Positions 2,694-53,677 of a stretch of DNA of 60,820 nt are shown here, piece after piece; the first letter of the stretch is position 1; each line of letters opens with the position of its first letter. Under the pieces are notes generated by a model. The model made no database searches, had not been told where the DNA came from, and was given only the letters and a program-made list of their open reading frames with translations. The position numbers were made by a program, and so were the translations under genes. Origin of the DNA: Girardia tigrina (taxonomy: Eukaryota); the NCBI GenBank assembly GCA_001938485.1, contig MQRK01224224.1:1-60820 (forward strand), read 5' to 3'.

Positions 2694-3972
2694 TTGGGTT
2701 GTCCAAAAAGTCATTGCGTTTTTTACTAAAATATTTATTATCAAAAAATGACATGGATGCACAAATATTTTTACACGATATACTGTCCATTATTTTCAAT
2801 CACATTCTTCCACCTTTCCGGTAGCTTCATTATTCCTGATTCACAAAAACCTTTGCCTTTGTCAGCAAAAAAGCCGTCTAGGAACGATTTGATGTCATCA
2901 TCACTGGCGAATGATTTTCTGTTTAAGGAATTCTGCAGTGATCTAAATAAGTGAAAATCCGATGGGGCCAAGTCTGGAGAATACGGTGGGTGCGGCAAAA
3001 CCTCCCAACCCAGTGATAAGAGTTTCTGGCAAGTGGTCAAACTTGTATGCAGTCTTGCGTTATCATGCTGAATTACAACTCCTTTTCGATTTGCCAATTT
3101 AGGACGTTCCTGTTGAATTGAATGAGCCAATTTCTCCAGCTGACCACAATATCTGTCTGAATCGATGGTTTCATTCCTCGGAAGGAGTTAAAAAAACACA
3201 ATTGCTTTAAAATCCCACCAGACGGAAAGCATAACCTTCTTTTGGTGAATTTCTGCTTTTGGGATCGTTTTGGCATGCTCACCACGTTTTGTCCATGATC
3301 GTCGGCGTTCCATATTGTTGTAAACAATCCATTTTTCGTCACCCGTGATCAAGCGCTTCAAAAATGGATCACTTTGTTCTCGCTTCAAAATGTCAATACG
3401 TTTCACCAAATGAATTTCTTTCAGTTCATGTGGTAACCACATATCGAGTTTACTGACGAATCCAAGTTTCTTTAAATGACTTCCAACACTTGATTTTGAT
3501 ATTTCCAGAGTCTCTGCAATTTCTCTTGTCGTCATATGTGGATTAGATTTGACCAGTGCTGTTATTTTGTCGCCATCAACTTCAACTAGTCGACCGGAGC
3601 GTGGTGCATCTTTCAGATGAAATTTTTCAGAACGAAATTTAGAAAACCAGTATTGACACTGTCGAAGTTTTANNNNNNNNNNNNNNNNNNNNNNNNNNNN
3701 NNNNNNNNNNNNNNNNNNNNNNNNNNNNNNNNNNNNNNNNNNNNNNNNNNNNNNNNNNNNNNNNNNNNNNNNNNNNNNNNNNGATTTTCCATTTCGAATT
3801 GACGGTAAAGTAATAAATTAAAACAAAATCAATTAATATTTTGTATAAACATAGTCTGGAAATTAAGGTTTCAGAATATATAATTGAATTTAAATTTTAT
3901 CGCATCGTTTTATATTTTCAAGCTTTTTATTAGGACGTACTCAAAAACGCAATGACTTTTTGGCCAACCCAT
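2694..3972 (-). mobile_element. Full-length mariner (DD34D) element, inactive
   Basis: ~30-bp TIRs TTGGGTTG(T/G)CCAAAAAGTCATTGCGTTTTT flanked by TA. Motifs WLPHEL, ITGDEKW, HDNAR, HPPYSPDLAPSD. ORFs 3188-3535 and 2771-3130 share a frame, split by one TAA. Confidence 0.95.
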
Positions 3973-4300: not shown

Positions 4301-5224
4301 TTAATATATGTATTTAGTAAAAATATTAGCATTGACGGTAGAGTTAGCCATTGTTTTGCAATAACCCATTCCGTTGATTGTCATACTTGCAATTAAAGAA
4401 ATTGATCTACCTCTTACTGTTGGTGTTGATACTATAGCACGAGTTCCTCGCTTCGATCTAACATGAGATCTTTTTAAATGTAAATTAAAAGATGATTCAT
4501 CGATAAATATCGCCCCTGAAAAATCATTGTTGAAATGGTTGTTAAACCATAGCGCATATTCCTTTCTCAAAATGATTTTTTTCGACCGAATTAACTCTAT
4601 CTAGCTCTCTGTGGGAAAGTTTCAGAGTTATTTTTAGCTCTTCTAGGCATCTATTAATGCTAGAAATTGATATCGAAATTTTCAGATCAGCTGCTTGCTC
4701 AAGCTCTTCTTTAATTTCTTTAAGTGTAAACTGTGGGTTAAATGTAACGATCTCCTCAATGTTGTTTATATTATGCGCTGTGAGAACTGTTCTTATTGAA
4801 CCACCTTTTGCTTTGAGGTTAACAATATTGTGCTTGTTATATTTATTGACTATTACTGTTGCTGAATTATAGTTAATTTGAACGATCTCTGATGCTTCTA
4901 ATATACTCTGTCCTTGTTCACAGACGAGTCTAATTAAGCTTTGACGTTTTTCATTTGATATTTTAGCATATGAAACTCTTGTTGGGGTTTGATTTGCAGG
5001 ATTAACTGTCAAGGCAGTATTGTTCGAATTATTTGAATCCCTTTTGATTTTTGAAAAAGCGTGAAATTGCGTTAAATAAATTTAATCAAATTAATTTCTT
5101 TTTTATATTTCTATATTTAATATTAACCCTAACTTATTTATCAGGTGAGTTATTAGTTAAAATTTTTGATTTAAATTTTTGAACAAAATTCATTGATAAA
5201 ATGTTCAATTTGACCGGAAAATGG
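4301..5224 (-). mobile_element. IS630/Tc1-like (DDE_3) transposon, 3'-truncated
   Basis: HTH-type ORF 4542-5012, then IFIDESSFNL...RGRSISLIAS (first catalytic Asp). Frameshift in an A7 run. Putative terminus CCATTTTCCGGTCAAATTGAAC next to TA at ~5224. Confidence 0.8.
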
Positions 5225-5295
5225 TATATAAATAAAAATCTTAAATAATTAAATATAAATTTATTACATCTTCCTTCAAAACTAACAAATACTAA

Positions 5296-5511
5296 ATTAT
5301 AATTACTGATGATCGAGTGTGAAACTTCAAAACATGTTCAATAATCCATTTCTTAAAAAAACTTTCACAGAATTATTTTTCAAAAAAATATATTTTTAAG
5401 TCTTGTGAACTCTAATTTGATATTTTTAGAAATAATTTTATTAAAACTTCTTTGAGAATTAATTATTGAACATTTTTCGAAGTTTCATATTCCATCGTCA
5501 GCAATTATAAT
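5296..5511. repeat. Inverted pair of ~100-130-bp repeats, each with a minimal hammerhead-ribozyme core
   Basis: + copy: CTGATGA(5306)...aAAA-CATG-TT-CAATAAT. - copy: ATTG-CTGACGA(5501-5495)-TGGAATATGAAACTTC-GAAA-AATG-TT-CAAT. Confidence 0.65.
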
Positions 5512-6552
5512 GTAATTTGTAAAATAATAAAATGTTATTTTCAATGAAATATTTATTTGAACTTAAGATTTAATTGAAACCACTTTGACACTACCTAAAT
5601 TCTTGAAAATAGTCTGTAAATGTTTAAAAACCTTCATGATAGTGTATTTTAATTATCCATTTTTTAAATCCTTTCTTAAGCCGTGTTTGTGTACATAATT
5701 TTAGCAATGTATCCTCATTGTTGTGATCTATCTGTTTGTTTATGTACATGACATCCCTCAAGCGTTCTCTAAGAATATTTAAACCATAATCCGTGATTTC
5801 AAAATTGAAGACAAGTTTCAAAATCTTTGATATAACCAGTTTATCATTTCATCTCTATGCTTTTTCTCACAAACGCTCTCTGATATTCCTTGGAGACCTG
5901 TACCTGTTTTCTTTTTATATAATTCAGTTAGATATCCCCCATTCATCCTATTGACAAAATATCGTACATTGGATCGGCAAAACAAGGATTAGTGTGCATT
6001 CACAATCAGGTCAAGTCTCAATTTTTAAAATCTTTAATTAAAATAAATAAATTTCTAATAATTCTTAAAAAATTAAATTTTTATATTTAAATCTTCCATT
6101 TTTAAATAATATAACAATTAAAATAAAAAAATTTAATTATTATTCAAATATTTCCCCAATTATAATTTGTAAGGATAAAGTATGAAAATTCGAAACATCT
6201 TTAATGATCAATTTCTGAAAACTTTATTAAATTATTTTTCAAAAATATCGAAATTAGCGTCATATCAACTCGTGCATAAAAATGCAACGCCTCTTTAAAA
6301 ATTCAAAATTTTCGGCACCCAGGTAGATGATTTGGGAGCTATATAAGTTCAAGGAGTGGTTAATTGTTTTACAAAAATGTTTTACCACAGACCCCACATT
6401 GTACAAAGAAAAGCTTAAAACTTTTGTGCACTCAGATTCGTGCACGATATTTCAGGAAGACGGAGTTAGGTCCATACAGTCTATGCTCCAATGGCTTGAC
6501 GAATTTACAAAATTTGTACAATTTATGTTCTGCTTAAATTGTATGCACATAC

Positions 6553-7695: not shown

Positions 7696-10600
7696 ACATA
7701 AAGATGTAAATGTTCAATCGATAATACTAATAATAGTCGCGATTACTGAATTGTTTCTGTGTGCCTGTTTGTGCTATGACTGTTGCATTCATCTGTTCGC
7801 CGCCGGTTTGTAATTACAGATGGTTAAAACCTGTATTGAATTTTAGATTCTTGTCGCTTTTGGGTTTATTATTAATAATTGTCGTTGAGTAACGTATGTC
7901 AAATAGTGGCTTTTTTAGCTAGTAATAAATACCATATGTATTTATTTACAGTTTGTATCCACTAGATCTGATCCGATCATTGAATTTCATTTCGTGTCTT
8001 TATATCTATATTATGAGGGAACATAAGTCTGAGATTTAAATCAAATAAAGATTTGGTAAAGCCAGTTTTGATGCAAAATTAAATAAAAATTTAAACAATT
8101 ATTTCGTTATTTTAAAGGGTAATTTTTCTATTCTTCAAATTGACCTTAATTCGCATTATGAGAAGGGTTGTATAGAAAATCATTGCTAATCAGACACTAC
8201 AACCGGTGTCATTGATTAATAAACAAAATGGGAAAAAATAAACCAGCCTCAATTTTAAATATTTAAATTTTTTTTATTTTATTTCACTAATTAACATCAA
8301 TTGTTTTCTATTTATAATTTAATTTTATTTGGGAAATATTAATTATTAATGGTAAGCAAAATATATAAATGATGACCTATGATAATTCGTTAACTTGTTT
8401 TGATCATAAATATATTTCTAGTCTGGTAAACATTAATATGCTATTATTTGAATAAAAAAAATGTGAAAGCCCATTTTCGAAAACTATTGTGGTACATGTT
8501 TCTATTTTCTTTGGTCAATAATAATTAAATTTAAATTAAGAAAATAAATTACTACCAAGCATACAAGTCGATAATATAGTGAAAGCTAATCTTGTGTACA
8601 AATATAATTGTCAGGGGTTACAAAACTCGTGCATTGGAGGGACAATTCGTCATCGCAAAACACGGATTAGTGAACAGTCCCAGTTGAGTAGATCGAATAA
8701 GGTTGTCGATCCCTGTAAATGATTCAAAGATACAATTTCAAAAGACGATTTTTCTATTCTTCAGATGAATTTCGATTGACATTAATAGAGGTTGTTTTGT
8801 GTATCAATGCTAATCGGACACTATCACTCATTAATTAATTAGAAAATTAAAGCAGTTTCAATATTAAATGTTTTCAGATAATTTATAAAAATAATTAAAA
8901 TTATCATCCAGTAAAATAAAATTTAAATAAAATTAATCATGAAACTGTTTTTACACACTTTTATATAAGCTTTATCTGTCTATTTGTCTGGTACAAATCT
9001 TGTAAATGATTTTTCAGCCACTTCCCAATGTTCAATTAAGCTGAAACATTGCAAACTTACTCATTTGATGACAATACACGAATCAACTAACAGATATTTT
9101 TGTGCACATATAAAAGGGTTTTTTTCTAAAAAACTATTTTTTATATGTATTAATTGTTTATACTCAATACTCAATTTCAAATAAATAAGGAAATGAATAA
9201 AAATCTAAGCACGGAATCGGTTTCTGATGGCGATAATGTGAATGCGATAGACTATGAGGAAGAAGGATGTTGAAGAATACATAATTTTAGTGCATCCAAT
9301 AATTGTGGGTTTTGAAAGCATGTATTATAATTTTGAGAAAACATTTCAATAAAATAGAAAATGGTGAAATTCATGGGGCATCAATTTCTTATTTTGAAAA
9401 TTCATTCGAGCAGATTAGTTGAGATCTGTTATAAAAAGGAAATATATTAAACTTCGTACATGTAAAAGTTGTTGTATAAGAACTTTTTATGTTATTTTCT
9501 AAATAATACTCCCACTCGTCATTGGGATCACATATGATCGTAATAACTAATAAAATTGGTCGAAGGCATATGACTGGCAGTTAATCTGTTATTCATAAGC
9601 TGTTAAATTGAAAAAATATATTACTTATATAATATATAATTGAGAAATTTGGAAAATTATTAACAATGTATTTATTGGGAAATGAAGTATAACTAAAATT
9701 ATATTTATAATGTCGCAAAATAGATTTTGATAACAATCAAAATGAATTTATAAGTTACCTAATTCTGATGTAGACCTAGACTTATTAACCAGATTCAACT
9801 TTTTTGAGCAATTCGTTTTATTGCGTCGATTCCGTCATATTTCTGAGGTTTTCCTGCATAAATAAATTGGTTTTTGTCGAAAAAATATGAAAATTTAATA
9901 GTCAGAATAATTTGAAACTCTATCAATAAATTATGATTATTATAAATTATTCTTAATTTTTCTATTCTTATTCGACAAAATTTTCGTTCAAATTGAATCT
10001 TTTTGAGAATTGTTTATAAATCAATAAAGAACAATTGTGGGGTTCTTGGAAATCCAATGTAAATTGTCAAAATCGGGTGGAGTTGGTTTTTTGTTTCAAA
10101 ATCTGTTTAAAAATTGATTTCGTTTTTTATTTATAACAAACTGAAACAAAAGGAGAACTAAAGTTTTCTATTTTTTTAAAGGATTTTAGAAATAATTTAA
10201 TTAATTTTGTAGAATTTTTAAAATTAGGAAAAGATTTTTCTGGGAAAATCTGTTTTTATTATTACTTGTTAAATTTTTCGTTCAATGACTTACAATTTTG
10301 TGGATACAAAAGTATTTTTTCGTTATCGAAGCAAATCTAAAAAAAACAAATAAAAATTGATTTTTTAGGTTTTTTTCATGAGATTTTTTATTTGAAATTG
10401 ATTTTAATTATTTATTTATTATTTTTATAATTATTATATTTAAAATATTTATAAACACAATATAATCTCCTTAATTGAAACTCTTGATAATCACGACTTT
10501 TTAAGAATCGCAAATTTTTATAAGTACAAAAAGAAAGCTGTATTTTAATACTTAAATTAAATAAATAGTTAGTCTAAAATTTCCCATTAATTTTCCGCAA

Positions 10601-16265: not shown

Positions 16266-17695
16266 GTGAGATAGTAAATTTTAGCCCCCACGTCCCACAA
16301 TCCACCCCCCAGCGCCAAGACGCCGCGGCCACCAAGCTGCGTTCGCTCTCGCATCACCAGTTACAAAACACAAAAAGACCCACAGAACGAACGTTACTCG
16401 TTTCTTTGTACTTATTTAGGTACCTAGTATTATAGGATGCTACAAGCGTAATAGATCTTTACGGTCAGTCGAATTAAGTGGTTGTTTTTGGCGAACTTCT
16501 TTCTCTCCGTACATCGCGAGAACGCTATTCAGAGGTTGTGCATATCTAATGTTTATGATGATTTTATGACGAATTATTGTCAAAAAGAACTGGGACTAAT
16601 ATTACTATTGTTTCCAATAAAAATGTGATGTTTTTTACCTACTTAGTGGACAAAAATCCAAAGGTAAGGCGGTTAAATATTCACTTAATTTGGTGATTTA
16701 TGAGTACACTGAGTGTATATAAAAATCTGATCCATAAAATAAGTTTCAGTATATCTTAATAATTAATTTAATAATTAATTTCAATGTTGTGCTCTCCAAT
16801 TATTTTTAACCACTGGCCCCTATTACGACAGATCTAATAAAGACTGCCGAATATTTGTCTCATGCAATTTTATTATCGGTCTCAAAAAAACAAATAACCA
16901 AATTTACGTTACCATAAAATTTTCGGAAACACGAAATATTGTATAAAAATTTAAATAAAAAGCCAAAAAGAATTTATTTATTCTTTTAATTAATATTTCA
17001 TAAATATATATATTGCCGAAAGGCTGATGTCATGTCGATGAATAGAGGGAGCTTGCTTTTCTTTTTCAAATCATACAAAAAACATGATTTAATTTCTACA
17101 TTTATTCACTGAGTTGTTCTTGATTTCATTTAATGATTCCTCTTGTCTCTTACGGCTTAAAATTATCCTCCTGTTCGATTATAATAAAACTTTTAATTGT
17201 TTAATGTTACAATAAAATATATAATCTTTTACAATGTAACACATTTCTTAAATTAATTATTTATTAAATTTTTCCACATGAGTTTTCAACTTTTTCGGTT
17301 TCTAAAATTTTAAATTATTTTTTGTATTTTATTCGTCAATATACGCATAATCAATTTAAGTATAAAACAGTATTTTCTCAAGGAAATAAGCTTTGTGTAA
17401 AATAAATTGTATATTCAGTTTCTGATATTCTTTTTAACATTAGATTTATATTAATATTTATTTATATTATTATTCTAGTGAGTCTATAACACAAACTATA
17501 TTAAGTGACTCCACATTTTTTAAATTATAAATTAGTGTTTAAGATTTTAAAAATTATTCTAAAAATTTAGTATTATTTATCTTTCGATTATAACAAAAAA
17601 GCTTAAAAAATGTGTTTATGACTGTATAAATTGATCATTGTTTTTATCAGTTTCTGTTGCCCATTTTCATTAATACTTTTTTCTTAATTAACTTA

Positions 17696-18775
17696 GGTAC
17701 TTTCACTTTATCTCAACCCCTAAAAATTTTGATAATTAATTTTTATATTTATTAAATATTGACAAAATATTGATTAATAAATTATTCATTTATTTCTAAA
17801 ATTTATATGATATAGTATGAATCTCTTTGATTTACCGTGAACCGAAGAAGAGGCCGTTACTCTTCTCCAAGAGAATAGTATCTTGCCGACCGAAAGATCA
17901 CAATATGAAGCTATACTTTAGTCAAGAAATCTTTTTAGAAGTGCAATGTCAAAGCACGCAAAAAGAAGGTCACTATCCGTACCGGTACTTGGTTTGTGTA
18001 TTCACGTTTGTCATTTGTCACTACTGTACGCTTCTTTTATGGTTGGTCCGAAGAGTACACATTAATCAAATGGTGCATGGAAGAGTTGGGTACAGGACAG
18101 AATACACTTGTTGATTGGAACGCCTATATGGGTGAAGTAGTTACCGAACAATTGACTCGACGTCCGCAACAGAAGATTGGTGGCCAAGACATGATCGTGG
18201 AAATTGATGAGAGCATGTATACCAAGCACAAGAACAATGCGGGTCGTATTTTGTCTCAACAATGGATTTTTTGGGGGTTGTGCCGTGACACATGTGAATG
18301 CTTTCTTGTCCAGGCTCCAGATCGAAGCGCAAAAACATTGATGATCGAGATCTAGAAGCACATAAAGAAGGGAACGACGATCTATTCAGAAAGTTGGCGA
18401 GCGTAGAAGACCAAAGAATTGGAAAAGGCTGGCTTCGAGCATTTCAAAGTCAATCACAAGTACAATTTCGTAAATCCGGACAGTGGAGTTCAAACGCTTG
18501 TGGGGATCAGCGAAATGGCGCAATAAGAAGCAACGAGGCACCAAGCGCGAGTTTTTGGAATCCTATTTGGTGGAATTCATGTGGCGCAAGCAACTTGCCG
18601 GTTCTGATGTCTTTAAAGGATTGATGGAAGCAATCGCAGCGTTCTGGCCTCCCGAATCACAAATGTAATGCTTTTTGAGTATTTGAGTCGTTTGAATAAA
18701 TTGTTTGATCAATTTTGAAATTTTATTTATTTTTTTTATCAAAAATTTTTGGGGTCGAGATAAAGTGAAAGTACC
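17696..18775 (+). mobile_element. Merlin (IS1595/ISXO2-like) DNA transposon, frameshifted transposase
   Basis: TIRs GGTACTTTCACTTTATCTC(A/G)ACCCC with a perfect 8-bp TSD TTAACTTA. Motifs IGG.DMIVEIDES, PDRSAKTL, YLVEFMWR. Confidence 0.93.
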
Positions 18776-19434
18776 TTAACTTATTTATATGATGTGTCTT
18801 CGACTTTAGAAAGTCATATTTTATGTTTATATTTTTCATAGAGAAATTAGAAACTTTCTTAATTATGTTAATTTTATCGTTGCATCTTGAAAATACTAAG
18901 TAAAATAATGAAGTTTTAATTTTTAATTATTTTTTACTTAAGTGATTTTGAGGTTGATTTAAGCATTTATTCAAATTACTAATTAGATACAGTTAAAATG
19001 TTAAAACTGCTGACAATCTAGAAGCATTAATTAATAATAGCAAGTATAAATCTAATATTTTAGGTATAATATTTTAAATATTATTTTTTGATTATTTAGA
19101 ATTTGGAATTTTACTGGAAGAAACTAATATAATAATGATAGAGTTATTAATTAAATAAGCTTAGTAATTAGATTGAATAATCGAATTCTGAGATGCATAA
19201 CATCATCAATGTTAAAATGAAGATTGTTGAGATTACAATTCAGAGGATGTGAGCAATAAATAAGTATCAAATAAGACAATCGAAACTTTTAAGCTCTGCT
19301 AAAAACTTCAATATTTGTATTAATTGTAATCTTTATTTATAACTTATTATTCAAACTGTGAACATTTTGATTGTCTAACAATATAGAGAATAAACTTCTT
19401 CATCAATTTGTAAGTATGAATCATGAGAGCATTA

Positions 19435-20624
19435 TTAAGTTGGAACGAAAATTTTGTCAGTTGTGTAAGAAACTAACTAAATTTTTAAAGTTAATTTTAT
19501 CTTATATGGATTTTATATATTATGGATATGATTTCATATATATTCTTCAGAACATTTTAATATATTATTCGCATTGTATTGTCTTTTCAATAAAAAGTTA
19601 TTCATTTTAGGAACAAGTTAAAAGGCCAAAAAGCGTGAATTTTTTGATTTTAGACAAATTCAAAATTGTTCGTACATCAGCAAAAGCGTCTAATTCTATT
19701 TGCGTCAGCAACAGTCGAGATTCTATGACTGAGAGAACATGTTTCCGATGGTATGCGAAATTCCGCTCCGACTATATGCATCATAGAGACAGAAATCCAT
19801 CTAGAGACCTAACAAAAATAATAAACGAGCTCTACGCCGTTCCATTGAAGCGGATCCGACGCAAACAACGCGCGAACTGGCATCTGAACTCCAAATTTCC
19901 CATACACCGATAATTCGGAATCTGTAGAAAATGAAGAAGAAAAATAAACGTGGTCAATAGGTCCCACACGAACTCAATGAAATACCAAAAAATCGGTGAA
20001 ATAACGACTGTTCTCGGCTATTGCATAAATTCAGTCGTGGTGGATTGTAATGGATTTTGATGTATGATGAGAAGTGATCAGCATCACCGTGTTCAGGCAA
20101 CTTTGCGTGTTCATGGTATCAAAACGGCTCGTGTTTGTTTTCAATAAGTCAACACTAGACCTCATTTTTCGCACTGGACGCTTAAAAATCTTGAAGCATG
20201 GTGTTGGGATATTCTTAAGCACCCGTCATATAGCCCAGACGTTACTCCATCTAATGATCATCTTTTCCGGTCACTGAACATTTCATTCACGGATATCGCT
20301 TCATTGAAAATGAACACGTGGAACAGATCCTTTAAATGTTTTTCAACATGAAAATGCCAAAGTTTTACCACCACAGAATTTTCTTGTTTGAGTCTTGTTG
20401 GAGAAAAATAATTGAAAGTAATCGCGACCTCTTGTTATTTTAAAAATTTTGGTTTTCATAAAATCAATACGTAATCAGTAAATCATTTAAAAACTCTCAA
20501 CAAAGTTGTAGAGAGTGCAGTTTTGAACGTTAATTTTAGGATCCAAAGATCTTATATATAACGCTTCACATGTCACTCTCTCATAAAATGTTAATTTTTT
20601 GACAAAACTTTCATTCCAACTAAA
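19435..20624 (+). mobile_element. Old degraded mariner element
   Basis: Imperfect TIRs TTAAGTTGGAACGAAA.. / ..TTTCATTCCAACTAAA. Residual motifs WYAKFRS, VPHEL, HPSYSPD..DHLFRSL. Confidence 0.75.
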
Positions 20625-21644: not shown

Positions 21645-22321
21645 CACATTTGTATGGGGAGTGTAATGGGTCGTTCAACTCAAACGTCGTGAGCGGCCCG
21701 TGTTCAATGTACAATCAGTGTTACAGTCAGTCAACTGCATCAAACAACAGCAACCATTATCATCACATAGCGGTTACTCATGTACCATCATCCTTTGGGT
21801 CTTCAACGACTTCATCTGAAATTATATCGAACCAGTGCAATGGTATGTCCTCTTATAACGAAAATGGCTGTCATTCTGTTTCTTCATCATCTGCATCATC
21901 TTTGTTAAATCACTGTCGATCCAATACAGATCTCGTTTCACAACACACAGGTCCGCCGAATTCTTCTTATAATCGTAGTCAATCTTGTTCCGTTTCCATG
22001 GCCATTGGTGATAATGAAGAAGAAGCAAAGGACAGATTTGTAGTAATAGAGAAGGGGAAATGTTATGTCGATGGAGAGTTGGTTCAAGGATTGTCGCCAT
22101 CACAGTTGGCACAAGTGCGACGTCGACATCGTCGTCCAGGTAATTCTGGTGTGATGTCCAGCAGCAGTGGTACCGGTAATGATCGTGGAATGGAGTCTAC
22201 TGATTCAGATATTAGTAAACGTTTGTCTTTGCCTGCAAATATTAATTTACCTGCACATCTACTCAACCGAAAAAGTCAATTACTTGAGCCGATGACGAAG
22301 AAGGATCGCAGATATTCATTG
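21645..22321 (+). CDS. CDK16/17/18: PCTAIRE kinase exon, N-terminal regulatory region
   Basis: Acceptor ATCAG|CA, donor TTG|GTTTGT (phase 0). Encodes DISKRLSLPANINLP and RRYSL, matching CDK16 DINKRLSLPADIRLP and RRVSL. Confidence 0.9.
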
Positions 22322-25029: not shown

Positions 25030-27110
25030 GAGAAAGATTATCCCTATAAGCAAGATGGTTGACTCATTTAACATCCAAACCAAGATTGCCGATAGGGAAG
25101 TGAATTCCGTTAATCTAATATGACATTAGATGACTGATTTCTTACTAGTTAATTGAATTAAAGGAAATCAATTCTTCTACCACTTGCAGTTTCATGTTTT
25201 GGATAGAAAAATTTTACAAGAATAATCTTCTCTTACTAACAGTAAATATATTATTCCCAGATCTCATGTCGGTTCGCTCATCAAAAAAATGACATCGTTT
25301 TAACACAAAGTCCTCTTTCATATTCTCCACACTCGGCCAAGTTTGATCATTTTATTTGCTTTTTTTTAACATAAATTTTTAGCAGTATTATTAACTATTT
25401 TCATTTGCATTTTAGTTTTTTTTCGAAATGATCATAACTTTGTCGACCTGATTTAATTCTGATTAAATTAGGCAAAGATTAATAGAACTTTAATGACGTT
25501 TTTAATGCTTAAAAATTTTAGTGTAATTATAATATTATTTTTTCACATAATAACTTAATTGATACGCACCTTCAATCAATACATTTTCGATCATACATTT
25601 AAATTTTATTTTAAAAAACATGTTTGTTAGAGAAAACCTTCATTCAAGCCTTATTTGGGTAGTTTCTTGTGTTTAGTGACATAGGTTGTCCTCTTTATAA
25701 CAACAGTCGATGGTTAAAAGAAATGAAGTAAATGAGATGAAGCTTAAAATGCGATAAAATTATAACCTTAAGAAAACGACAATTTTTTTTCGAAATAATT
25801 AGTCCATATTCTACAGAAATTACTGGCTTCGAAGATCGATTAATTAATGCTTTTATTTATAACAGCTATTTCTATTCTATATTTTTATTTTGACTATATT
25901 ATATTCATTATAATTTATCACGTTGAAGGGCATTTTAGTAGGCCTCCGATCTCTTTCAATGGTATTGAGCCTAAGGCTCTTTAGTAAGTTCACTCCAACT
26001 TAAGAGACTAGCAACTCCCGATAGGCTTTTATGGGGTCCTAAGCCCTCTTACGAACTCTCATCGGTCCTCCTGTGAAAAATGACTAACAATCTTCCAGTG
26101 AACCTAGAGCAGCCAGCGAAGGGTTATCTGAAGTTTCCTTTTCGAAATCGAAAACGTGCAACTTCTGAGAAGATCGTCTCAGAAGAATTCTGGCATATCT
26201 TTTTTCGTAGTTTATGTTCTTCTTTCTGATTTGCGTCACTTCTGCTTGATTGAAGTTACTTTGGTTGATATTTCTGTTGTTTGGTGGTCGTTTCGGTAGT
26301 GTCTGGTTAGCCATTCTTGAGTTGAGTAACTCTATAAGGTAAGGTTTTTGATCTGCATCTAGTTTGGTATTCTTGAGGTCTTTGCGAACATGTCGGTTCA
26401 ATTCTTTTTGTTCGGCAAACTTAGTGTAGCAGTTCTCGTAGTGGTATTGGATTAACTTCATTCAGTGGTTGATCAGTTTTAATAACTCACTAGGGGTTTT
26501 CCTGCAGTTCTCCTTTAACGGATTATCTGCATTCGGAGTATAGCACCTTTCTGTCCGGAAATGTTAATTAAGTCTTTACAGGCGAGTTTTGCTTCCAACA
26601 GCCATTCCAGATCAATCTTCAGGCATTCTTCTGATCTCTGCTTTCTTCTTCAACTGATTTTTGTGGAGCTTTCCATCGCACTTTTAAATGTTGAGTACAC
26701 TTCTTTGAGGTCTTCCTAAAAAGCTAAGGGAACATTGAATATAAGCCGTCTCTTATCAATGATGTCCATGGGGTGTTATATACCAATACTGATCGTTTCC
26801 ATTCTGATTCTGTATCTTATCAACATTATGTGGTGTTCTTGTGCATATATTATGGAGTGCTTTTAGTTAACGAATCTTCTTTCCATTCGCTCACCAGTTT
26901 TCGGATCCATAATATACGATTGGGAAAATGCAACTTCCAATTAGAGTTTTTTTGTTTCTGATATTTAACTTATTACACTCCAGAACTGGTCTTAGTTCTC
27001 TTAACTTCATAATTTTTTATTTATTACCAGTTGATATTGTCAAATATTCACCCGGTTTATACATGTTATATGCGAACCTTCTCGAACTTTTAAAAAATTT
27101 TGTTTTTTAA
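25030..27110 (-). mobile_element. Heavily degraded retroelement-like sequence (non-LTR?)
   Basis: Coding-like composition, a 125-aa ORF at 26084-26461 and vague RT-like remnants near 25090-25200. No clean motif. Confidence 0.3.
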
Positions 27111-28914
27111 TGATTTTCTCCATAATCTTCTTTTTTTGATAATAAATTAAAGCATGCATTCTCGGTATCGACTAATGTGGCCCTCAGTCACCGTTTACCC
27201 CCTTTGATTATTATTCCACGCTATCCCAAGTAGCCTCTCAACTCATCTCCCTCTTCATCTATTGTATTGTTTTATTTGCTGTTTTATCAGTATTACTTAT
27301 GTAATGAAAGATAAATTTAATAAAACTTTCCTTTCCTTACTATGTTAAGTCAGAAAAAAGTTTTATTTAAATTAAAACCATTTATCGTTAAAATACAGAC
27401 AATTAATTTATTGTTGGTTTTCTCACAGTCTTCAAGGTTTTACTAAATCAATATATTCTTGTGATTTATATAAATAGTGTTGGTCTCGCGATGTTGAGGG
27501 TTATTAATAACGTTGCTTCAATACGCATTAACTAACGTACTCATCAGTTGAATTTATTACAACTACCGTTTAATCTTTTCTTTTAATTATGTCACTTTAA
27601 CTAATTTTCGTTTTATATGCTATATTGTGATGCGGTGGGAGTTATACTAGTTTACTACGAAATTGTCTAATAAGATAGAATTCTATATTGTACCTGAAAG
27701 TTGGAAGCAGTTTTTCAAAATCCTGCTTCCAAAACCTGGGAAACAGGGACAATATGGAAAGTATCATCGTCGAAACGAATTGCTCTTTTAGAGTGTGAGT
27801 ACAATATATTAGCTATGTTTTATAAAGACCCTAGTCAAATGGAACCTTTACTAAACATGAATTTAAATTCAGACAGTATAGAAGAACCCCACGTGAAAGT
27901 TTAGCACTTCGATTCGGAGGTCCTTAACAAATTACTTCAAACATCCAATTACGGGGTAATGTAGTTCGGGGACAATGATTTTTAATTAGATGAGAATTAG
28001 TCGTCAGGTGGATAAGTCTAAGATATAGGAAATATAAAATATATCGGGTCTGGTGGAAACGATCACCCAAATTAGTTGCTCAGGGGGATGGCGCAGTCAA
28101 AGAACCCGGGTAAAACATTGCACGGTTTACCAGCCATGTGGATGCAATGAGGAACAGACCGGAATCTTTTGCCCTCAGCTAAAAAAAAATCTGACCTAGT
28201 ATACTCCTAAATAGTACAAAAGCAGGCCAAAATTTACAATTTCTAGAATGTATTTAAAATTATTACAATGTTTGAATTAAGCTAAGGCTTAAATTAGAAA
28301 AATATATTTATTTTTAGATAGTTAATTAAAATGTAAAAATTAAATAATAATTTATGAAACTTTTCAAACATTAACTGAATAAATTTCAATACTACTTTAC
28401 TGTTTATTATTATATTGCACATACAATTTATTACTTATTTTTAAATTGATTTGTCAATTTAATTAAATTGTATAATTTTATTTGCGATAAATTAAAAAAA
28501 CGAATAATTCCAAGACACATAGATATGTATATATATTTATGTATAAATATAACCGAGTGGGGAAATTGGATCAGAATCGTTAAGATGACACATCGCACAG
28601 AATTTATAAAGCAATTATTAGAAAAGAATTTATATTGATTTATTTTTTATTTTGAAGTGACTTGTGAGATGAGTTAGAAGTGGACCTCATGATTTGATTT
28701 AAACGAACATTTTAGTTCAAATTTTTCCTGTTAACAGAAATCTTGTTAAATAATGAGCGGTTAATTTCAGTCTGAAAATAATGATATAAATTTGTTTACA
28801 ATTTAAAGTATATAATTCCAGCTCGAGGCTAAAAACAAATTTCTAATTGCGCGACTGTTTAGCCGAAAGTCGTCCCGATATTCATATTATATATAATTAT
28901 GTTTGTATAATATT

Positions 28915-29030
28915 GAGTCTTGTGAACAATAATTTCATATTTTAGAAAAATAATTTTGTTAAGCCTTTTTTTAAGAAAGATTATTTGACATGTTTCGAAG
29001 TTTCAAACATAATTCATCAATTTGTAAAAT
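28915..29030 (-). repeat. Copy of the hammerhead-containing repeat
   Basis: Reverse complement reads TTGATGA-ATTATGTTTGAAACTTC-GAAA-CATG-TC-AAATAAT, followed by the family tail ending GTTCACAAGACT. Confidence 0.65.
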
Positions 29031-29919
29031 TTTATTGCTAATTTTTAAATTTTATAAAATTACAAATTAAAATGAAACATGGTATATTTTTCAATATGTA
29101 TTTAGTTTCCTAATGTTATTATTAAATATTAATAATAATTTACATTTATATTTTAAAGATTTTAAGAATTGCAACGGCCTTACTTTATCCGTTTTAAATA
29201 TTAAGTAATGGGTTGTAGAGTAATCAATTATGATTCATAGCACTGTCATTCGTAATGTTATCTAAAGCCCTTCTGTAAAATTGAAAACTCATCCTTTGAA
29301 ATAGAAGAGATTCTTTTTACAATGAAACTAATGATCGAGAACACTTCTAGATCGACTTGAATGTGAATGCTCACTAATCTGATTTTGAGATGATGATTTA
29401 TGTCTCTAATGTTGGCGTCCTATCCCTTTCAATAATATTTATCCTCTAGGCTCTTTAGAGGGTCCACCCAAACTAAAGAGTATGTAGCAGCACCTAGATA
29501 GACCCGATATGAGGTCGGATTACTTCAGTCTCCTACCATGGATTGTAGTTCAATGGTTCTGCATGTCTTTGGCTGTTTCTGTGGACTTTATACAGCCGTG
29601 AAACTTTATACATCTGAACTATCCTTTGGCAGATAAGTCTGCTATCGTAAAAGATATACGTGTTTCTTCAGCATTGATCATTTCTTCCACTACCTTAGAG
29701 GTAGTCTGAGGTTCCGTTACTAAATGACTTTCAATTTTTTGAATATCTTTGGTATTTTGGTCGGTTTCCTCAATTGTGCTGCTGAACTGGTTGATTTTTT
29801 CTGCTTGATTCTATGCAATTCTGACAATTTAGGGTCCTTCTAGTTTTGGATCCCTATTGATTTGTCTCTTTAGCACCATTTTGCTTTATGAGTCTTTACA
29901 GCAGGTACATTTGAAAAGT

Positions 29920-30050
29920 TTTGAGACTTCGGTAATCTTACCAATGTACGAGTTTCTACACTCGTGATAATTAAATTTATACACCAGATTAGCTTGTAAT
30001 ACACAAATAGTTTTCGATTTATTTGAGATGAATCTTTTAATTTTAGATGT
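29920..30050 (-). mobile_element. Penelope-like GIY-YIG fragment, opposite orientation to its neighbour
   Basis: NLVYKFNYHECRNSYIGK (VY...C..YIG motif). Confidence 0.6.
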
Positions 30051-30164
30051 CATTGAATAAATAAATTTCATTAAATAAATAAAAATTCGCAATTAATATT
30101 TGATAATATCCTTCAAAAGCACAATGCATTCAAAAATCTATCATTTTATATTCAAATTTTTAAA

Positions 30165-30660
30165 AATTATATCACGATCTCATAAAATTCAAAATATGTT
30201 CAGTAATAAATCTATTACACCTTTAACACTTTGTTCTGATATTGTTTATGAATATAAATGTAATGGGTGTGATGCCACATACATTGGAGAGACTGTCCGT
30301 CATCTCTGTAAACGAATTCAAGAACATGGTCGAAAAGAGAGTAAGAGTAATATTGCAGAACATAGGAAAAAATGTAAATGCGATGTTAATTTTGATAATT
30401 TCAAAATTCTGTGTAAGCATTTTGACAGTTATTGGGAGAGAGTGTCGTGTGGAGCATTGTTAATTAGGTCACGTTGCCCTAAAATCAATGTTCAATCGGC
30501 AGTCTTAACTAGTTAATTGAGAATTTTTGATTAGCATGATTTCATGCAATCGATTACATAATCATCATTTTTGTATTTATATACAGGTGAATTGATTATT
30601 AATTAGTGACCTGAAGATGACGGTTGATGCATCGAAATATATTGTCAATAAATATATTTT
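30165..30660 (+). mobile_element. Penelope-like retroelement 3' end (GIY-YIG endonuclease plus pLTR/3' region)
   Basis: DIVYEYKCNGCDATYIGETVRHLCKRIQEH...IAEH...FDNFKIL is a typical PLE endonuclease. Hammerhead and AATAAA lie downstream. Confidence 0.9.
30607..30647 (+). ncRNA. Minimal type-I hammerhead ribozyme
   Basis: TGAC-CTGAAGA-TGACGGTTGATGCATC-GAAA-TATA-TT-GTCA: stem I TGAC/GTCA, both core boxes, palindromic TATA stem-loop III. Confidence 0.7.
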
Positions 30661-32370: not shown

Positions 32371-32559
32371 TGATTTTATCAGCAATATCGAAGAGGAGCC
32401 TGTTTCATACATATAAATCGATTGAAAAGGTATTTTTGAAAGTTTTTTTTGATAAAACAGGATGCTTGGATTTATCCGCAAATGGATTTTTTGAATTTTT
32501 TATATTTTTTTCAGATTTTTTCCATTCTTTTTTTTGGCTTACTTTCCAGGTATATAAGT

Positions 32560-32892
32560 ATCCATGGTATTTAGAAACCTATTTATGAAGGCTTTTTACT
32601 TAATCAATTTTCTCCAAACTTGACACACTTACTCATTTTCGATGGCAATAAATGATAATGTGAAAATTTGGTCAAACTAGTAATTAAAAAATTTTTTTTG
32701 CAAAAAATGTTTTATGATTATCCACAATTTTTCCATTAATAACTTACCTTTCATATACCTATATATATATATATATATATATCCATGGAAATTAGAAACC
32801 TGTTTTTGAAGGCCTTCTACTCAATCGATTTTCTCCAAACTTTGTACACTTACTCATTCTCGATGACAATAAATTATGTGAAAATTTGATCG
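32560..32892. repeat. Two imperfect ~115-bp direct repeats (32560-32675, 32780-32892)
   Basis: Shared ATCCATGG..TTAGAAACCT..GAAGGC..ATTTTCTCCAAACTT..ACACTTACTCATT.TCGATG.CAATAAAT. Confidence 0.8.
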
Positions 32893-35800
32893 AAAAAAAC
32901 TTTTTAAGATCCCAAAATGGGAAAAAAACGGAAAATTCGTAGTTCCCGAACAATATTAATTGCAAGATATCTATTTATAAATTATAAGTAGTTTGTATTA
33001 ATTTTTAATGTGTTTTTTTTTAATTTAAAATTTTTTAAATCTTAAATTTTTAAATTTTAAAAACTTTGTTTGCAAAGTAGAGTTTTGTCTCAATAAAGAA
33101 TGGATATAAAAATTTTAAATTTTTGATTTACTATTTTTAAAATGTTTTAAATAGAAATGTTTTGGGTTTTTCCTTCCATACTTTATAATAAATTTACTAT
33201 GATATTAGTAACTATTTAATTGCAAATTGAAGTTGTCAAAATTTTTGTATGAAATTTCCCCTTTCTACAAAAGATAACAAAAAATTCTGTTGGCCAAGTA
33301 GAGTTCTGCCTGCATAAAGAATGGATATAAAAATGTTTTTTTGATTTACTAGTTAAATAGGGAGTCTTCAGGTTTTTTGAGAGAATAAGAAGTTGCGACA
33401 AATACATTAAACGGTTATTCTGTTTTAAATTAAAGAGAATTTCAAAATAATCCATAGCAATAAATAAAAAAATAAAAATTAAATATAACCACATAAACTG
33501 TAAAACAAATTATATCTTTAATTATGATAAACTGTATAAAAATAATTCACAAACTTCAGATATTCTATCTTATAAATTTTATATTATATTTATAACGAAA
33601 CTAAAATTATATTATTATTTATTCTAAATTATTTAATAAAAATTACATAACTAATTTCCATACAATTTCCGATGTTCTTTAAATGGATTTATTGATTGCT
33701 ATTTACTTTTTTTAAATTAGTCAACAGGGAAAAATTTTAAAAATGAGTTTTTATTGTATTTAGTGTTGCATAATAAATGAAACATTCTTTAATTTTATAA
33801 TATAACAAACATGAATAAATCTGTGTTTCTTTATAGAGAAAAGTACAAACACCATTTGAATAAGTACAATAATTTTGCTATCTGTTTAGTAGAAAGCTTG
33901 ATCAGATCTAAACAATTATACACAACGCAGCATGTGACATTAACAATTATTATTTTAATTCACAAGAATAAACGTTTTCAAAGATTTTATGTTTTCAGAT
34001 GTGCATATTTTGAATTTCCATTTGTTATTCACACTAAATAAATAACTCATTTGTGCATTACAACATAGGTTTCTGTGGAGTTTTCGATATGTTTTTTCAT
34101 CGTTTTTAGTCTAATATTTTTTAAAATAATGCTAGCTAATGTTAGTTTAACACATTACAATTTTTTCTGCAGAATTTTAGTCAAGCTACATTTTATTGCT
34201 TGAAAGATATTGTTAGTATCTTATCAATAAATGTAATTTATGATATAATATATCATCAAATAACATCTTGTGCATTCCATAAATTGAGTTCCTAATCGTC
34301 CTTCCTCCCGGTGACATAATGTCGATGTATCAAAAAATCGAACAAACAACTCTGAAAATTTACATTCTAACTATTTCATGCTTACTTATTAATCTCATTA
34401 TTCTTAAATTGTTAATAAATTCAAGAGCCTCAATTTGGAACTGGATATGCTACTAGTTGCTTCTCAAATGTGGCCTGGGCTTGATAAGACACTGAAAACA
34501 TATAACTACTTCATTCTCATTAAGTTATTAAATTATTGTTTATTGAAAATTTAGTTACATATCATAGTATTAATATAACTTATATAACAAAGTTTATAAT
34601 TATTTATTTGCAATCCTTTGCGATATTTGATGTTTTGCAATATTTTTGTTAGAAATTATGAAAATAATTAATAATGTTATCCTATAATTATGGGATTTGA
34701 TTTAAATACAGTTTATTGTTTTATAAATTTTAGGATGCAACGTAATATCAAGTTTCTCTAATGTAGTTTAGTTATGTTCTAAATCTCTGATTATATCTCA
34801 CAAATTATCCCTAAGGTCACCTTTCAGAAGTCATAACTTCCTCCATTCATTGAACTTTCCTTAAAACGCTCTTTGCAAACCAATAGGAAATAATTCATCA
34901 TATTACATGAATGAATTACTATTATTCGGAAAGGGATTTTGCAAAAAACAATTTATCTAGTTTTATGTTGCTTATGAGAAGTAGTTCATATTTCCAATAG
35001 AAAGATTGCTCCTATACAGTAGATTTCGATTGTCTCTGATCATTATCAGCTTTTAAATAATTTAAAACTAAATAACAAATTTATAGAGGAAAATAAAAAT
35101 TTAAACACTCTAATTTTTTTTGACAATGATGTATTAAATTTTTAACAATTTGAACTCAGTCACTTGAACCCTATTAGGTTTTTAAAATTAATTTAAATAT
35201 CTATAACTATGGTTCCTCCATCATCTCTTACACATACCTTTTAAGTCCTACCTTATGTTCGGCAGAAATGTATATCCACATGGCTTACTCAGTGAATCCT
35301 AGTTTCCTATATTCAATTTTTGACATCCCCGACAGCCTTTGATATCCTTAAAACTTCACAATATAATTTCTGTTAAAACAAGCCCGAGAGGAAACAAAAT
35401 TTGATTAATTTGGTATATCTGTGAAATATTTTTGAAATATAAAATAGAGAATGCATTAAATAGCATGAAAGGGCATTAATTTACAATACCTTTTAAGGTG
35501 TTTCGAATACCGTTCATTACCACAAATTATTCATTATTAACCAAGAAAATAACTTTAAATTTGAAGTTGTTTTAATGGTTTAGTAATTTTTTTAATATTT
35601 CTTACAGATATATTTTGTCGAGTTTTTTGAAGGATATATTTGATAAATACATTTAATTAAGACGTTAGCTTTCTGTTGGAAAATACTATTGTTAACTAAT
35701 AATATATACATATACGTATTACAATTGATCGGGTAGTCTATCTAGTGTCTTTCTACAGGATACATTAATTATAATTCTCTTTCAATCGAATGGCAATTGT

Positions 35801-36585: not shown

Positions 36586-36642
36586 GCAGAAATCGGTTTT
36601 GGAAAACTGGAATCTTACACAAAATTGGACAAATTGGGGCAG
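36586..36642 (+). CDS. CDK16/17/18: PCTAIRE kinase 57-nt exon AEIGFGKLESYTKLDKLGQ
   Basis: Acceptor TTTTAG|GCA, donor CAG|GTGAAC, phase 0-0. Near-identical to CDK16 SEIGFGKLETYIKLDKLGE. Confidence 0.95.
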
Positions 36643-38870: not shown

Positions 38871-39890
38871 TAGCAAACAATGTTGATTTTCGTCAAAAAT
38901 TTATCTTTGGATATTGAAATTATAATGGTTAGTAATTTCAAAATGTCTTGGACCCCAAATGATAGAAAATAGCAAAGCATTGGTACCAAGTTCATATATC
39001 AAGCAATAAATAGTAGCTAAGAATAGAAACTAATCACTTCATTTATATACCATCAACCGCTATTAACTTTCCAGCGTAGGGTTTTGCTCAAAAAACCGAT
39101 CTTTTTAGCATACCAGTCATCATAAAAATGTTTCCACTCATGTTATTTCCAGGTTCCTAAATAAATAAAAGGATGGATGTAGTAAATCAGGTTTGCAAAG
39201 CGGAGGATCAAGAGATGTGAAACCACAGTCTTGCTAGCTAAAATGCTAACATTAAAGTTATGCTCGAAAGCATTGTCAAAATGCAAACACCATCAAATAA
39301 TTGCCATGCGGTAGTCCGGATTTCAACGTCAACAGAAGTTTTTCATCACATTGTCACTAAATTGAATAACGCTTGTTCCCTGTTAATTAGATTATCAGAG
39401 GAAATGTGTCCTGAGTAATATTTTCGAAATGACTTATTTTCGAAACCATAAGTTACAAAGTTGCAAGTATGCACATTGCACGTCGTTATCTGATATACTG
39501 GTTGATATAAGAAGTTTTAACAAATCGAGTGTAAAACTTCCGATAATACAAGTTGGAAGTGATGTTGTGGTTTGAACCAATATAAATACGAAACCTTTCA
39601 GCCACTATGGATATTTAATCATGTTGTCCTGTCGATTTAATGGCTCACATTTTAAAGTGTCTTCGTCAGAAATCATCATGATTGACAAACTTTCTTGATT
39701 TCTGATATCCATTTGTATGCATTGTTAATCACGAAGGAGACAATTGTGTTTTTTATCGTATACTCCATATCATGAAATATTTCCTTATTGTTCTTATTCA
39801 GCATAAATAAATGATACTGCAGCGTAACTTTTCTGGGAGAATTCAATCGAAAAATGAAAATAAATAAACATATCCAAATTATTTGAAATA

Positions 39891-41223
39891 CAGGGGTGGC
39901 CATAAGTCGCTTTACCCAGTTTTAATAATAATAAACACAAAATTCTAAATGATTTTTAAACAAAAACCAGATAAAATTTGTTTTAATAATTATTTATTTA
40001 AAAATTTTTAAAATTATTTCATTTTGTTCATTGTTGTTGGCAATATTGGCATGGTACGACAATTAACACTTCAGCAACGAATTATTATAGTAAAGCAGTG
40101 GATAAAGCATGATAGAAATTCAAGAGCTGTAGCTGCAGCATTTGCAAAAGAGTATCCGAATGACGTTCCTCCATCACGACAATCAATGCATGTTTTGGCT
40201 AAAAAGTTTCACGAGACCGGCTCTGTAACCGACAAGAAAAGAAGTGGGCGCCCTAACAATATGAATACCGATGAAAATAAAGAAAATATTAGAACTTTCT
40301 ATCAGTATGCGCCATCAACATCTGCATTTCGTGCAAGTTGGCAGTTGCATATACCACGCGCAAGTTTACGTAGAATAATGAAGGACATTGAGTTGAAAGT
40401 TTGGCGACCTCGTTGGCTTCATCAAATGAATGATGACGATTATGACAGACGCATAGAATTTTGCGAATGGTTACAGCAACAACTCCATGAGAACATTGAC
40501 ATCAGGGACAGAATAATTTGAACCGACGAACCTTCATTTAAGTTGAATGGTCACGTTAATTTGCATAATGCCGTGTACTACTCCACTGAGAATCCTCATC
40601 TGGTATGGGAGACCAACAATCTTTCTCCAGGAATTTGTGTGTGAGGAGGAATACGTTCAACTGGTGTGCTGGGTACATACTTCTTTGATGGAACGGTCAA
40701 TTCTCAGCTATATCTCGACATGCTGCGTGATTTTGCCGTACCTCAGCTTGACACAGATAACGACGTTTGGATGCAAGACGGTGGTCCCCCTCATTATGGT
40801 AGAAATGTACGCGACTTTTTGGATAACACTTTTGAGATGTGGATCGGCAGGAGAGGAACCACTGAATGGCCTCCACGATCACCGGGTCTGACACCTTGTG
40901 ATTATACAATGTGGGGTATCCTGAAGGAACGTGTTTACTCACAAAATGTTCTAACCATATCCTAGTTGAAGGAAAGAATTACTACAGAATTTGCAGCCTT
41001 GAACAACGATAAAGACTTGTGCCGACGAATCTGTCACTCTGTTCAGAGAAGAATCCAGTTGTGTATTAAATCTGAAGGACAACACTTTGAAGATAAGATT
41101 TAATTGTTTTCAAGTTTTTGTTTTGAAATTATTATTGTACGCTGATTAAATAAAAGTTGTATAATTTAGAAATTTGTGTTTATTATTATTAAAACTGGGT
41201 AAAGCGACTTATGGCCACCCCTG
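39891..41223 (+). mobile_element. Full-length Tc1/mariner element of the rosa/DD41D group (DD40D here), three premature stops
   Basis: ~50-bp perfect TIRs CAGGGGTGGCCATAAGTCGCTTTACCCAG..., TA flanks. Single frame 40051-41103 with RSGRP, TDE.SFKLNG.VN.HN, QDG.PPH and WPPRSP.LTPCDY. Confidence 0.95.
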
Positions 41224-43433
41224 TATAATTAATAATATGGAAAATAATATAAAACAAACATCAATACCACAAAGTCAAGGAACTAATATTCCTTCGTAAA
41301 ATCTAGTCTAAGACTTTTTAAATGAACCACCTAAAATAGTTTTTGATTTTAATAAATAAAATTTATTAGCAAAATGAAGGCTACATGTTTAATTTTGATT
41401 AAAAAATTTAAATACAACTTGTTGTTCTTATTATATGTAAAGAAAAACGAATTTATTTAAGAAGACATTAATATTTAGAAAAAGTACGTAGTGGGTATAA
41501 GTTTTAAGACCATCGAATGTTTTCTGTCCAAAATTTATTGAGAGAGGGACTCGCATGAAGCATTATATATTCCCGACCTTTAGATCCTTAAGTTAACGTC
41601 CAAACTATACTCTACTGATGCATTAGGTTTTTAAAATAAACTAATAATGTCGCATTATTATACTTTTAACTACTGTATTATTTGAGCAACTTTTTTAATA
41701 TTCATTTTATCTTATAATGACGGTTAAATAATCGAAATTAATAATCAAAAAATATTCTAATTGACTTGATGTCTTTGTGTTTGTCAATGTTGTTGATTGC
41801 TTCAGTTTTTTATTTCTTCTTAAAACAGGCTTCCAATTCTTCCAAATTTATCTTAAAATCATTATTCATTGTCCTATGTTTCTATTTACCTTTATCTGTT
41901 TTTCTTTTGTGATACTCAGTTTATCACCCCATCACTTTACGGTTTATCTATTTTTTTATTTTTTTCACTTCCAGTAAAATTTTTACACTAAGAAAGCTTG
42001 TATGAAAATTAAAGATCATAAATTATACAAATCATATTTCGTGTAAATTTTTTATTCCCATCATGGAACAGGTAACTTTACAAATTATAATTGATCGTGT
42101 ATAATTATCCAAGTGGGAAACAAATATATATTTTGACATTTTAAAAGTTTGATGGAAACAGTTTTCATTCCATTATGAATTAAAAAAGTAAGAGATCAGT
42201 ATACATTATTGTTTGTTTTTTTGCTTTCTTGTTTTAGAATTCAATTTTCGATATGGGATTAGTCCTGTCAAATTTAAATAAAAATAACCTTGATGTAACA
42301 TTATGATATAGATACAAAATAAAAAATCATACAGGTTGTAAATAAAGTTGCACAATTTTTATGTACCTTATTCTTTATGCTCTTAAAACTATTTTTTGAC
42401 TTTAAGATCATTTTGCATGATGTGAGTGTCTTAGATATTGTTTGTGTTGTGTTAAAATTAATTCGTGCTTTTTTATTCATTAATTTTATATTAATTGAAT
42501 TTTCTTTTTGTCAAAAAATGGAAAGGCCAGATCAGGTATTCGTGTTAGTTAAGTTGTTGATCGTCACTTTGACGTCAGTTAGCTAGAAGGTGATTTATCA
42601 TGTTCCGGTCAACATATAATTGCAAGAAACAAATATTGGTGTGGTACTGAAGATATTGAAATTGTACAAGGGGTAGCTACTTAAGTTTCGTACTAAAGAA
42701 GCTTTCTTCGGACTGTGGCGTCATACATCAACAATATACAGAATAGTGTCTGTTTAAAGAAAATGTATTCCTTAAACAGTTTCTTAATTGCTAAAATGAC
42801 AAAAGTTTTTCCCCACTTTATTATTTAAAACTGAAACAGGATCGAATAATTCAATGGTTTGTATATGAATTTGTACGACATTGTATCCTTCTCAGAGTGT
42901 AAGAATAAATCAAGAGATTTATCTTAACATTTGCAAAATAATCTCGTTCTTTCATTTATATTCTGCCCAGTCACTGAAAATTCTGGCTGTAAAAAAAGTG
43001 CTGTTCTCCAATTTTATCCTTTTCCTATCAGTTGCAGAATCGCCTTTAGATTACAACAAGCTGGAACACAATTACTAATGACATATTTCATGCAATTGTA
43101 AAAAATATATCAAGACATTACAACGGTGTAGTTTAGCTCATACATTTTTTATGATTTTAATAGTAATTTTGTTGATATTTATGATTAAATGAAAGATATT
43201 TTAAAACGCTGCAGGACTTTATTTAAGTATTTATAATAATTAAAACTTAAATTTCAGTTTAATTTTTAGAATTACTTTTAGAAATTAATTGTATTTTAAT
43301 TTAAAAGAATTCCCAAGTTGATGAGGTAATATTGCATAGAATATTTCCTGTCAATCTCTAGCAGTTTGATTGATTCGTTTTTTAGCATTTTATGTATAGT
43401 GTATTTTAATAAAGCTATTTACACATACATTTA

Positions 43434-53659: not shown

Positions 53660-53677
53660 ATATGTATATATTAGTAA

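Follow-up and report, generated by a model that had tools for sequence, protein, structure and literature searches.

The stretch of Girardia tigrina DNA analysed here (60.8 kb in all, hereafter the window) carries a short dispersed repeat with hammerhead-like sequence at its core, which raises the question of whether the repeat is a protein-free ribozyme element in its own right or a piece of a protein-coding retroelement. Judging from its sequence, we consider it very probable that the repeat is the 3' pseudo-LTR of an old, decayed, endonuclease-positive Penelope-like family, whose minimal type I hammerhead would cut only as a dimer. This reading draws on two features together: most of the accepted copies (four of six) lie next to remnants of reverse transcriptase (RT) or GIY-YIG, and the majority sequence agrees with a minimal hammerhead. 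Directly observed are the repeat, the core motif of its majority sequence, the coding remnants with their orientation, and the high abundance of the repeat in a public DNA run.

The window has a G+C content of about 27% and includes 1,459 N of assembly gaps. A kinase gene occupies much of it, with Tc1/mariner-type remnants interspersed around the exons:

22193-22321, 36586-36642, 50304-50513 and 57719-57970, + strand: exons of a CDK16/17-like (PCTAIRE-type) kinase

The four exons of this gene (22193-57970) are separated by introns of 7-14 kb, and the gene continues beyond the window end. DNA transposon remnants with terminal inverted repeats of 81-82 nt lie at 39873-41241, with a DUF4817 helix-turn-helix frame inside it (40012-40521), and at 17686-18785; mariner-type and Tc1-type frames are found at 2771-3817 and 4542-5081, and direct repeat pairs spaced 221 bp within 32551-33337 suggest a decayed 221-bp tandem unit.

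Five copies of the repeat, A to E, were verified by both blastn and a profile, and their unit measures about 115-120 bp, shorter than the roughly 130 bp given in the initial annotation. Copy B matches the other four with blastn E values from 8e-20 to 3e-13, and a profile of the five recovers each of them at E<=2e-21, the next match standing at 0.15 and the best in the reversed window at 0.31. Pairwise identity among the five is 65-81%, and each is 81-92% identical to the majority sequence. The copies, with two more decayed candidates, are the following:

5294-5395, + strand: copy A; hammerhead at 5302-5342 with G12 changed to A, final ~20 nt absent, tail-to-tail with B
5398-5513, - strand: copy B; putative pseudo-LTR end with a minimal hammerhead, core intact, helix III palindrome broken
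6158-6272, + strand: copy C; decayed (C3 to G, G5 to A), head-to-head with B
8420-8532, - strand: sixth copy; strongly decayed, inverted, beside the 5' break of a GIY-YIG remnant at 8570
28912-29030, - strand: copy D; CUGA box with a deletion, within a kinase-gene intron, antisense
53673-53787, - strand: copy E; C3 to G, differing stem II, intronic and antisense to the kinase gene
53933-54019, + strand: possible seventh copy; head-to-head with E, without stem II, borderline

Thus, the earlier list of copies was borne out for A to E, every one of which is damaged, as had been claimed; it had overlooked the copy at 8420-8532, and its entries at ~53.9 kb and ~60.76 kb proved borderline and weak, respectively. 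The overlooked copy scores 71 against the majority sequence, a value reached in 0 of 500 shuffles and above the reversed-window maximum of 56, with a profile E of 0.15. The candidate at 53933-54019 scores 56, which none of 500 local shuffles exceeds but which the reversed window equals at its maximum, and has a profile E of 5.4. The tails at 60750-60784 (profile E 0.3; 12/500 shuffles) and 51.88 kb (1/500) are both weak, and neither these nor a candidate at 21.5 kb (5/500 shuffles) qualified as a full copy. Since D and E lie antisense in kinase introns, the kinase pre-mRNA does not contain them. Copies A and B abut tail-to-tail, and one may have inserted into the AT-rich tail of the other; this layout differs from the inverted Penelope-like pairs described in PMC3846280, which are mostly head-to-head.

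To read the motif, copies A, B, C and E were aligned gap-free over 47 nt, with D omitted for its indels. The majority sequence comprises a stem I (ATTG/CAAT), CTGATGA, an extra T, a stem II of 4-5 bp opened by a G-C pair, GAAA, CATG and TT, so the initial annotation had placed the hammerhead parts (stem I, CTGAYGA, extra T, stem II, GAAA, CATG, TH) correctly. The core boxes CUGANGA, GAAA and UH stand in type I order in the majority sequence and in copy B, and are broken in A, C, D and E. Copy B keeps all 11 tested core bases, with stem I at 5505-5502/5468-5465, C3 at 5501 and H17, the cleavage position, at 5469, while its helix III reads AATG. Among the four in-register copies, the extra T after A9 is universal, helix I cells are paired at 87.5%, and the G10.1-C11.1 pair is present in two, as it is in the majority sequence; C3 is C in just two, being G in C and E. 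Stem II of copy E differs in sequence yet pairs at 5/5 positions, as had been observed earlier. H17 is mostly U, which makes a weaker cleavage triplet.

The majority sequence passes a strict type I descriptor, composed with the motif in view; when the letters of copy B were shuffled 200,000 times, the descriptor was satisfied 6 times. Covariation, put forward earlier as a test of the motif, does not reach significance in the four in-register copies (D left out for its indels; score 0.212, 91/500 shuffles), although the proposed pairs exceed all slid controls (82% against 20-50%). Cells that differ between copies number 4/44 in the core, 15/80 in the stems and 9/64 elsewhere, too few to show selection. 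The helix III segment of the majority sequence is a perfect 8-nt palindrome with a predicted duplex energy of -6.4 kcal/mol, and the monomer hammerhead fold is computed to be unfavoured (+0.9 versus -4.8 kcal/mol); an unfavoured monomer fold together with a palindromic helix III duplex is what dimer-only cleavage predicts. These data support the view that the majority sequence fits a Penelope-like minimal type I hammerhead with palindromic helix III, whereas the copies within the window itself are predicted to be inactive.

The bare CTGAYGA..GAAA pattern is not enriched in the window (4 matches against 1.84 expected; 9/100 shuffles), and the Rfam comparison suggested by the initial annotation brought up no hammerhead among the seven chance-level matches returned for the window at E<=5; hammerhead motifs of this sort escape Rfam. 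Exact-pattern scans for the repeat motif gave 0 matches in metagenome contigs and 0 in viral contigs, and the sequence family is unmatched in Rfam and in the scanned viral and metagenome collections.

A second, younger Penelope-like end in the window offers a comparison for the anatomy of the decayed repeat:

30160-30647, + strand: 3' end of a younger Penelope-like element, separate from the main repeat; GIY-YIG, stop codon at 30532-30534

This end lies within a kinase-gene intron on the sense strand and is 97% identical to P0121, a relative that carries both RT and GIY-YIG. Its hammerhead (30607-30647), with a full core, a TATA palindrome and a weak stem II, sits 77 nt past the stop codon and is followed by AATAAA; it is the only strict-descriptor match in the window, and an exact-core match arose in 0/20 shuffled windows.

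The resemblance to a hammerhead might be incidental: the Penelope-like end would be genuine, but its core would have had a regulatory or coding role and never have cleaved. Such an account would sit comfortably with the non-significant covariation, the unfavourable monomer fold, the G at C3 in two copies, the weaker triplet implied by U at H17, and a possible overlap of the stretch with an ORF start. It has to accommodate, however, a chance fit as rare as that found in the shuffles, as well as the extra U after A9, the G10.1-C11.1 pair and the palindromic helix III, none of which a bare core demands and all given in PMC4209133 as marks of real motifs, and a younger family in the same window with the same anatomy, a different sequence and the same place relative to the ORF. 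We regard an incidental likeness as highly unlikely and retain the pseudo-LTR with a minimal hammerhead as the preferred reading.

The number and variation of the repeats beyond the window were read from four of the 13 public sequencing runs listed, aligned to 5385-5985 at 80% likeness. Run X1 placed 2,269 records on this region, with summed depths of 69,913 at 5490-5510, 35,618 at 5469-5489 and 112-177 at 5826-5888, bearing out the earlier claim that the repeat is abundant; this depth suggests several hundred copies, in a pile-up that favours B and is not a true copy number. Run X3, which bears another organism label, yielded 303 records with the same variants as X1, and the 7 unlike reads of X5 and the single record of X6 fall outside the repeat and are not evidence. 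In the X1 majority, CATG is restored (5474, 75%) and N7 is U (5497, 75%), and core bases are untouched among the variant rows listed (40 of 61). The tally of change types in X1 holds a single G>C, located at 5704; since it is the only one, C3>G lies below 8% among the aligned X1 records. Positions 5490 (38%) and 5482 (31%), partners of one stem II pair that is mismatched in B, vary in X1 and also in X3, and their variants yield G-C or A-U, in a pile-up that gives no linkage between them. Among the 15 joints listed, out of 45, none is a circle- or tandem-type joint over the hammerhead, the contigs being of a kind that drops rare forms.

Whether the copies belong to a coding element was addressed with a query set built from the GIY-YIG frame at 30097-30516, which led to P0121-P0124 (4 of 24 candidates), and 150 further relatives. 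By eye, the GIY-YIG homologues have two Cys within the GIY-YIG core and no evident Cys-rich linker. Profile searches with this set, for which the best match in the reversed window was iE 0.12, and similarity searches located the following remnants beside the copies:

5560-5979, - strand: RT thumb and linker remnant upstream of B; stops and frameshifts, endonuclease part missing
5978-6013, + strand: short GIY-YIG remnant upstream of C, where the inversion meets the B-side remnant
8570-8875, + strand: decayed GIY-YIG end (profile iE 1.2e-13; tblastn E 1e-19)
29140-29412, - strand: C-terminal half of GIY-YIG upstream of D (tblastn E 8e-5 at 29387-29307; DNA z 13.3)
29931-30071, - strand: N-terminal half of GIY-YIG on the D side (profile iE 3.5e-6; tblastn E 8e-11)

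The RT remnant beside B is recognized by profile at 5961-5800 (iE 5.6e-9) and by tblastn at 5973-5788 (E 4e-10) and 5842-5618 (E 3e-5); the 74-aa frame upstream of B, used as a protein query, matched 0/58 candidates at E<=10. Copies B and C are arranged head-to-head around a junction near 5960-5980, and the link of C to a coding remnant is its 36-nt DNA match to the D upstream remnant only (z 6.9; 0/200 shuffles), with no protein-level match for 5978-6013 by tblastn. The GIY-YIG end at 8570-8875 belongs to the same Penelope-like family as the D upstream remnant (DNA z 12-13). On the D side, the GIY-YIG ORF stops about 110-120 nt upstream of copy D and its hammerhead, and its two halves are separated by an insertion of ~530 bp (29413-29940), whose ends carry a near-identical 7-nt duplication and part of which recurs at 25938-26038. 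Moreover, 67 X1 records leaving the B flank at 5556 run on into a match to 30005-30034 (27/30 letters by eye), which makes the upstream remnants of B and D one family. Other Penelope-like remnants lie at 20490-20591 (- strand) and 43673-43895 (+ strand), the latter of the same family as the D upstream remnant (z 8-10), and no hammerhead was found beside either.

The linkage to Penelope-like RT and GIY-YIG sequence that the initial annotation had proposed to look for is therefore present at four of the six accepted copies: B, C and D lie downstream of the remnants on the same strand, and 8420-8532 is inverted. Its proposed tandem copies did not appear, as none is head-to-tail within the 60.8-kb window; a full-length Penelope-like element is likewise not seen there. 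For A and E, neither tblastn nor DNA similarity, which did not rise above shuffles, revealed an upstream coding remnant, and long AT-rich blastn extensions upstream of them were discounted for that reason; 5' truncation explains the absence. Searches for related loci gave 24 stretches in viral contigs via P0121 and 386 in metagenome contigs via P0123, with 0 confirmed in either.

A different account would take the repeat for an ORF-less, non-autonomous element, either a solo pseudo-LTR SINE or a non-LTR retrozyme monomer, that derives from the Penelope-like family and is mobilised in trans by the enzymes of that family. The lack of a detectable coding remnant at A and E is what this account expects, two stem II variants could mark subfamilies, and preprint 10.64898/2026.07.22.740005 traces animal retrozymes to pseudo-LTRs and reports dispersed monomers. 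Nevertheless, coding remnants adjoin most of the accepted copies, the window is without a head-to-tail array, and the X1 depth of the upstream coding remnant equals or exceeds that of the hammerhead, at up to 286,736 (5763-5783) against 69,913; in addition, retrozymes are defined in PMC7229834 by tandem units of ~150-450 bp with canonical type I hammerheads. We find this account improbable, and there is an equally small chance that A- and E-like copies left the parent ORF and spread as a hammerhead SINE of ~115 bp with its own co-varying stem II. If true, such a SINE would be a halfway stage from a Penelope pseudo-LTR to a tandem retrozyme, a step that the same preprint proposes without catching it in progress. 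The pseudo-LTR of a decayed coding family remains the preferred reading, and of the earlier description of solo pseudo-LTR or retrozyme-like, ORF-less units, the pseudo-LTR part stands, while the ORF-less and retrozyme-like parts give way to copies that adjoin coding remnants and form no tandems.

There are hints that the ORF of the parent element may have begun inside the repeat. From the position of the loop 2 ATG, copy A stays open over 25 codons, the majority sequence is open for ~30 codons provided one ambiguous column is kept, and the closest full-length relative, P0132, starts with KLEF, which is also read at the 3' end of the repeat, a hint only; a profile of the N-termini of 33 long relatives found nothing in the repeat above control. 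In Anolis PAc, the ORF begins inside the hammerhead (PMC11167929), and rotifer elements have up to 22 codons within the pseudo-LTR plus tail (PMC3846280).

By analogy with published Penelope-like biology, the pseudo-LTR end would be the part copied first at each insertion. Close to the 3' end of the repeat, reverse transcription would have a fixed starting point, and since it would mostly stop early, short 3' stubs would abound; at the 5' break of some of them a second stub would lie inverted, a layout that B/C, 8420/8570 and perhaps E with 53933-54019 would represent. A common end motif is found in copies B, D and E, and TA-rich DNA follows D and E, both of which fit a fixed internal start of reverse transcription such as that described for Anolis PAc (PMC11167929). 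Heavy 5' truncation is reported for Penelope-like insertions, which often bear a truncated copy in inverted orientation at their 5' end (PMC8557442, PMC3846280); the B/C and 8420/8570 layouts fit this. On a tandem transcript from the active ancestor, the 8-nt self-complementary segment of helix III would let two hammerheads pair, and cleavage would then fall after the GUH triplet, at a slow rate and perhaps with a protein assisting. The PAc hammerhead is described as protein-assisted and as dispensable for insertion in vitro (PMC11167929).

In 2014, Cervera and de la Pena described minimal hammerheads (min-HHR) in the pseudo-LTRs of metazoan Penelope-like elements (PMC4209133). In these, helix I is short, positions 9 and 10.1 are separated by an additional base, and a G10.1-C11.1 pair is present; in rotifers, shrimps, mosquitoes and flies, helix III is small and palindromic. 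These motifs reach thousands of copies per genome, occur mostly singly in truncated elements, with opposite-strand pairs 100-700 bp apart, and show low activity even as dimers (PMC4209133); dimer cleavage was described by Lunse et al. (RNA Biol), as cited in review PMC6765202. The repeat shares with this class the type I topology, a 4-bp helix I, the unpaired base between 9 and 10.1, G10.1-C11.1 and the palindromic helix III, and also its dispersed single motifs tied to truncated elements, opposite-strand pairs and several families per genome; it differs in its helix II, which has 4-5 bp here compared with the published 6-8 bp. With endonuclease-positive (EN+) elements of the Penelope/Poseidon type it has in common RT followed by GIY-YIG, 5' truncation, an inverted 5' copy and a hammerhead just beyond the ORF end (PMC8557442, PMC3846280, PMC11167929); unlike the EN+ elements described there, PAc included, this family is known from remnants, with no full-length copy in the window.

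Non-LTR retrozymes, in turn, consist of non-coding units arrayed head-to-tail, from which circular RNAs arise (PMC7229834; 10.64898/2026.07.22.740005). The repeat resembles animal retrozymes in being short and AT-rich and in its type I hammerhead and pseudo-LTR ancestry, and is unlike them in that its copies are dispersed or inverted, ~115 bp long and for the most part joined to coding remnants, and in that its hammerhead is of the minimal, not the canonical, form. We rejected a retrozyme assignment because neither tandem units nor a non-coding nature, as these sources define the class, holds in the window, although the ribozyme would work like that of a retrozyme.

Most likely, the repeat belongs to the ordinary debris of an animal genome and is not a new protein-free element. 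As such, it adds one animal family to the Penelope-like min-HHR class already described in PMC4209133, whose supplements list many families, and this one might be among them. The practical use of the result is a correct annotation of the repeat. For studying the role of the hammerhead in Penelope-like transposition, the decayed copies are poor material, and the younger family at 30160-30647 is a better starting point.
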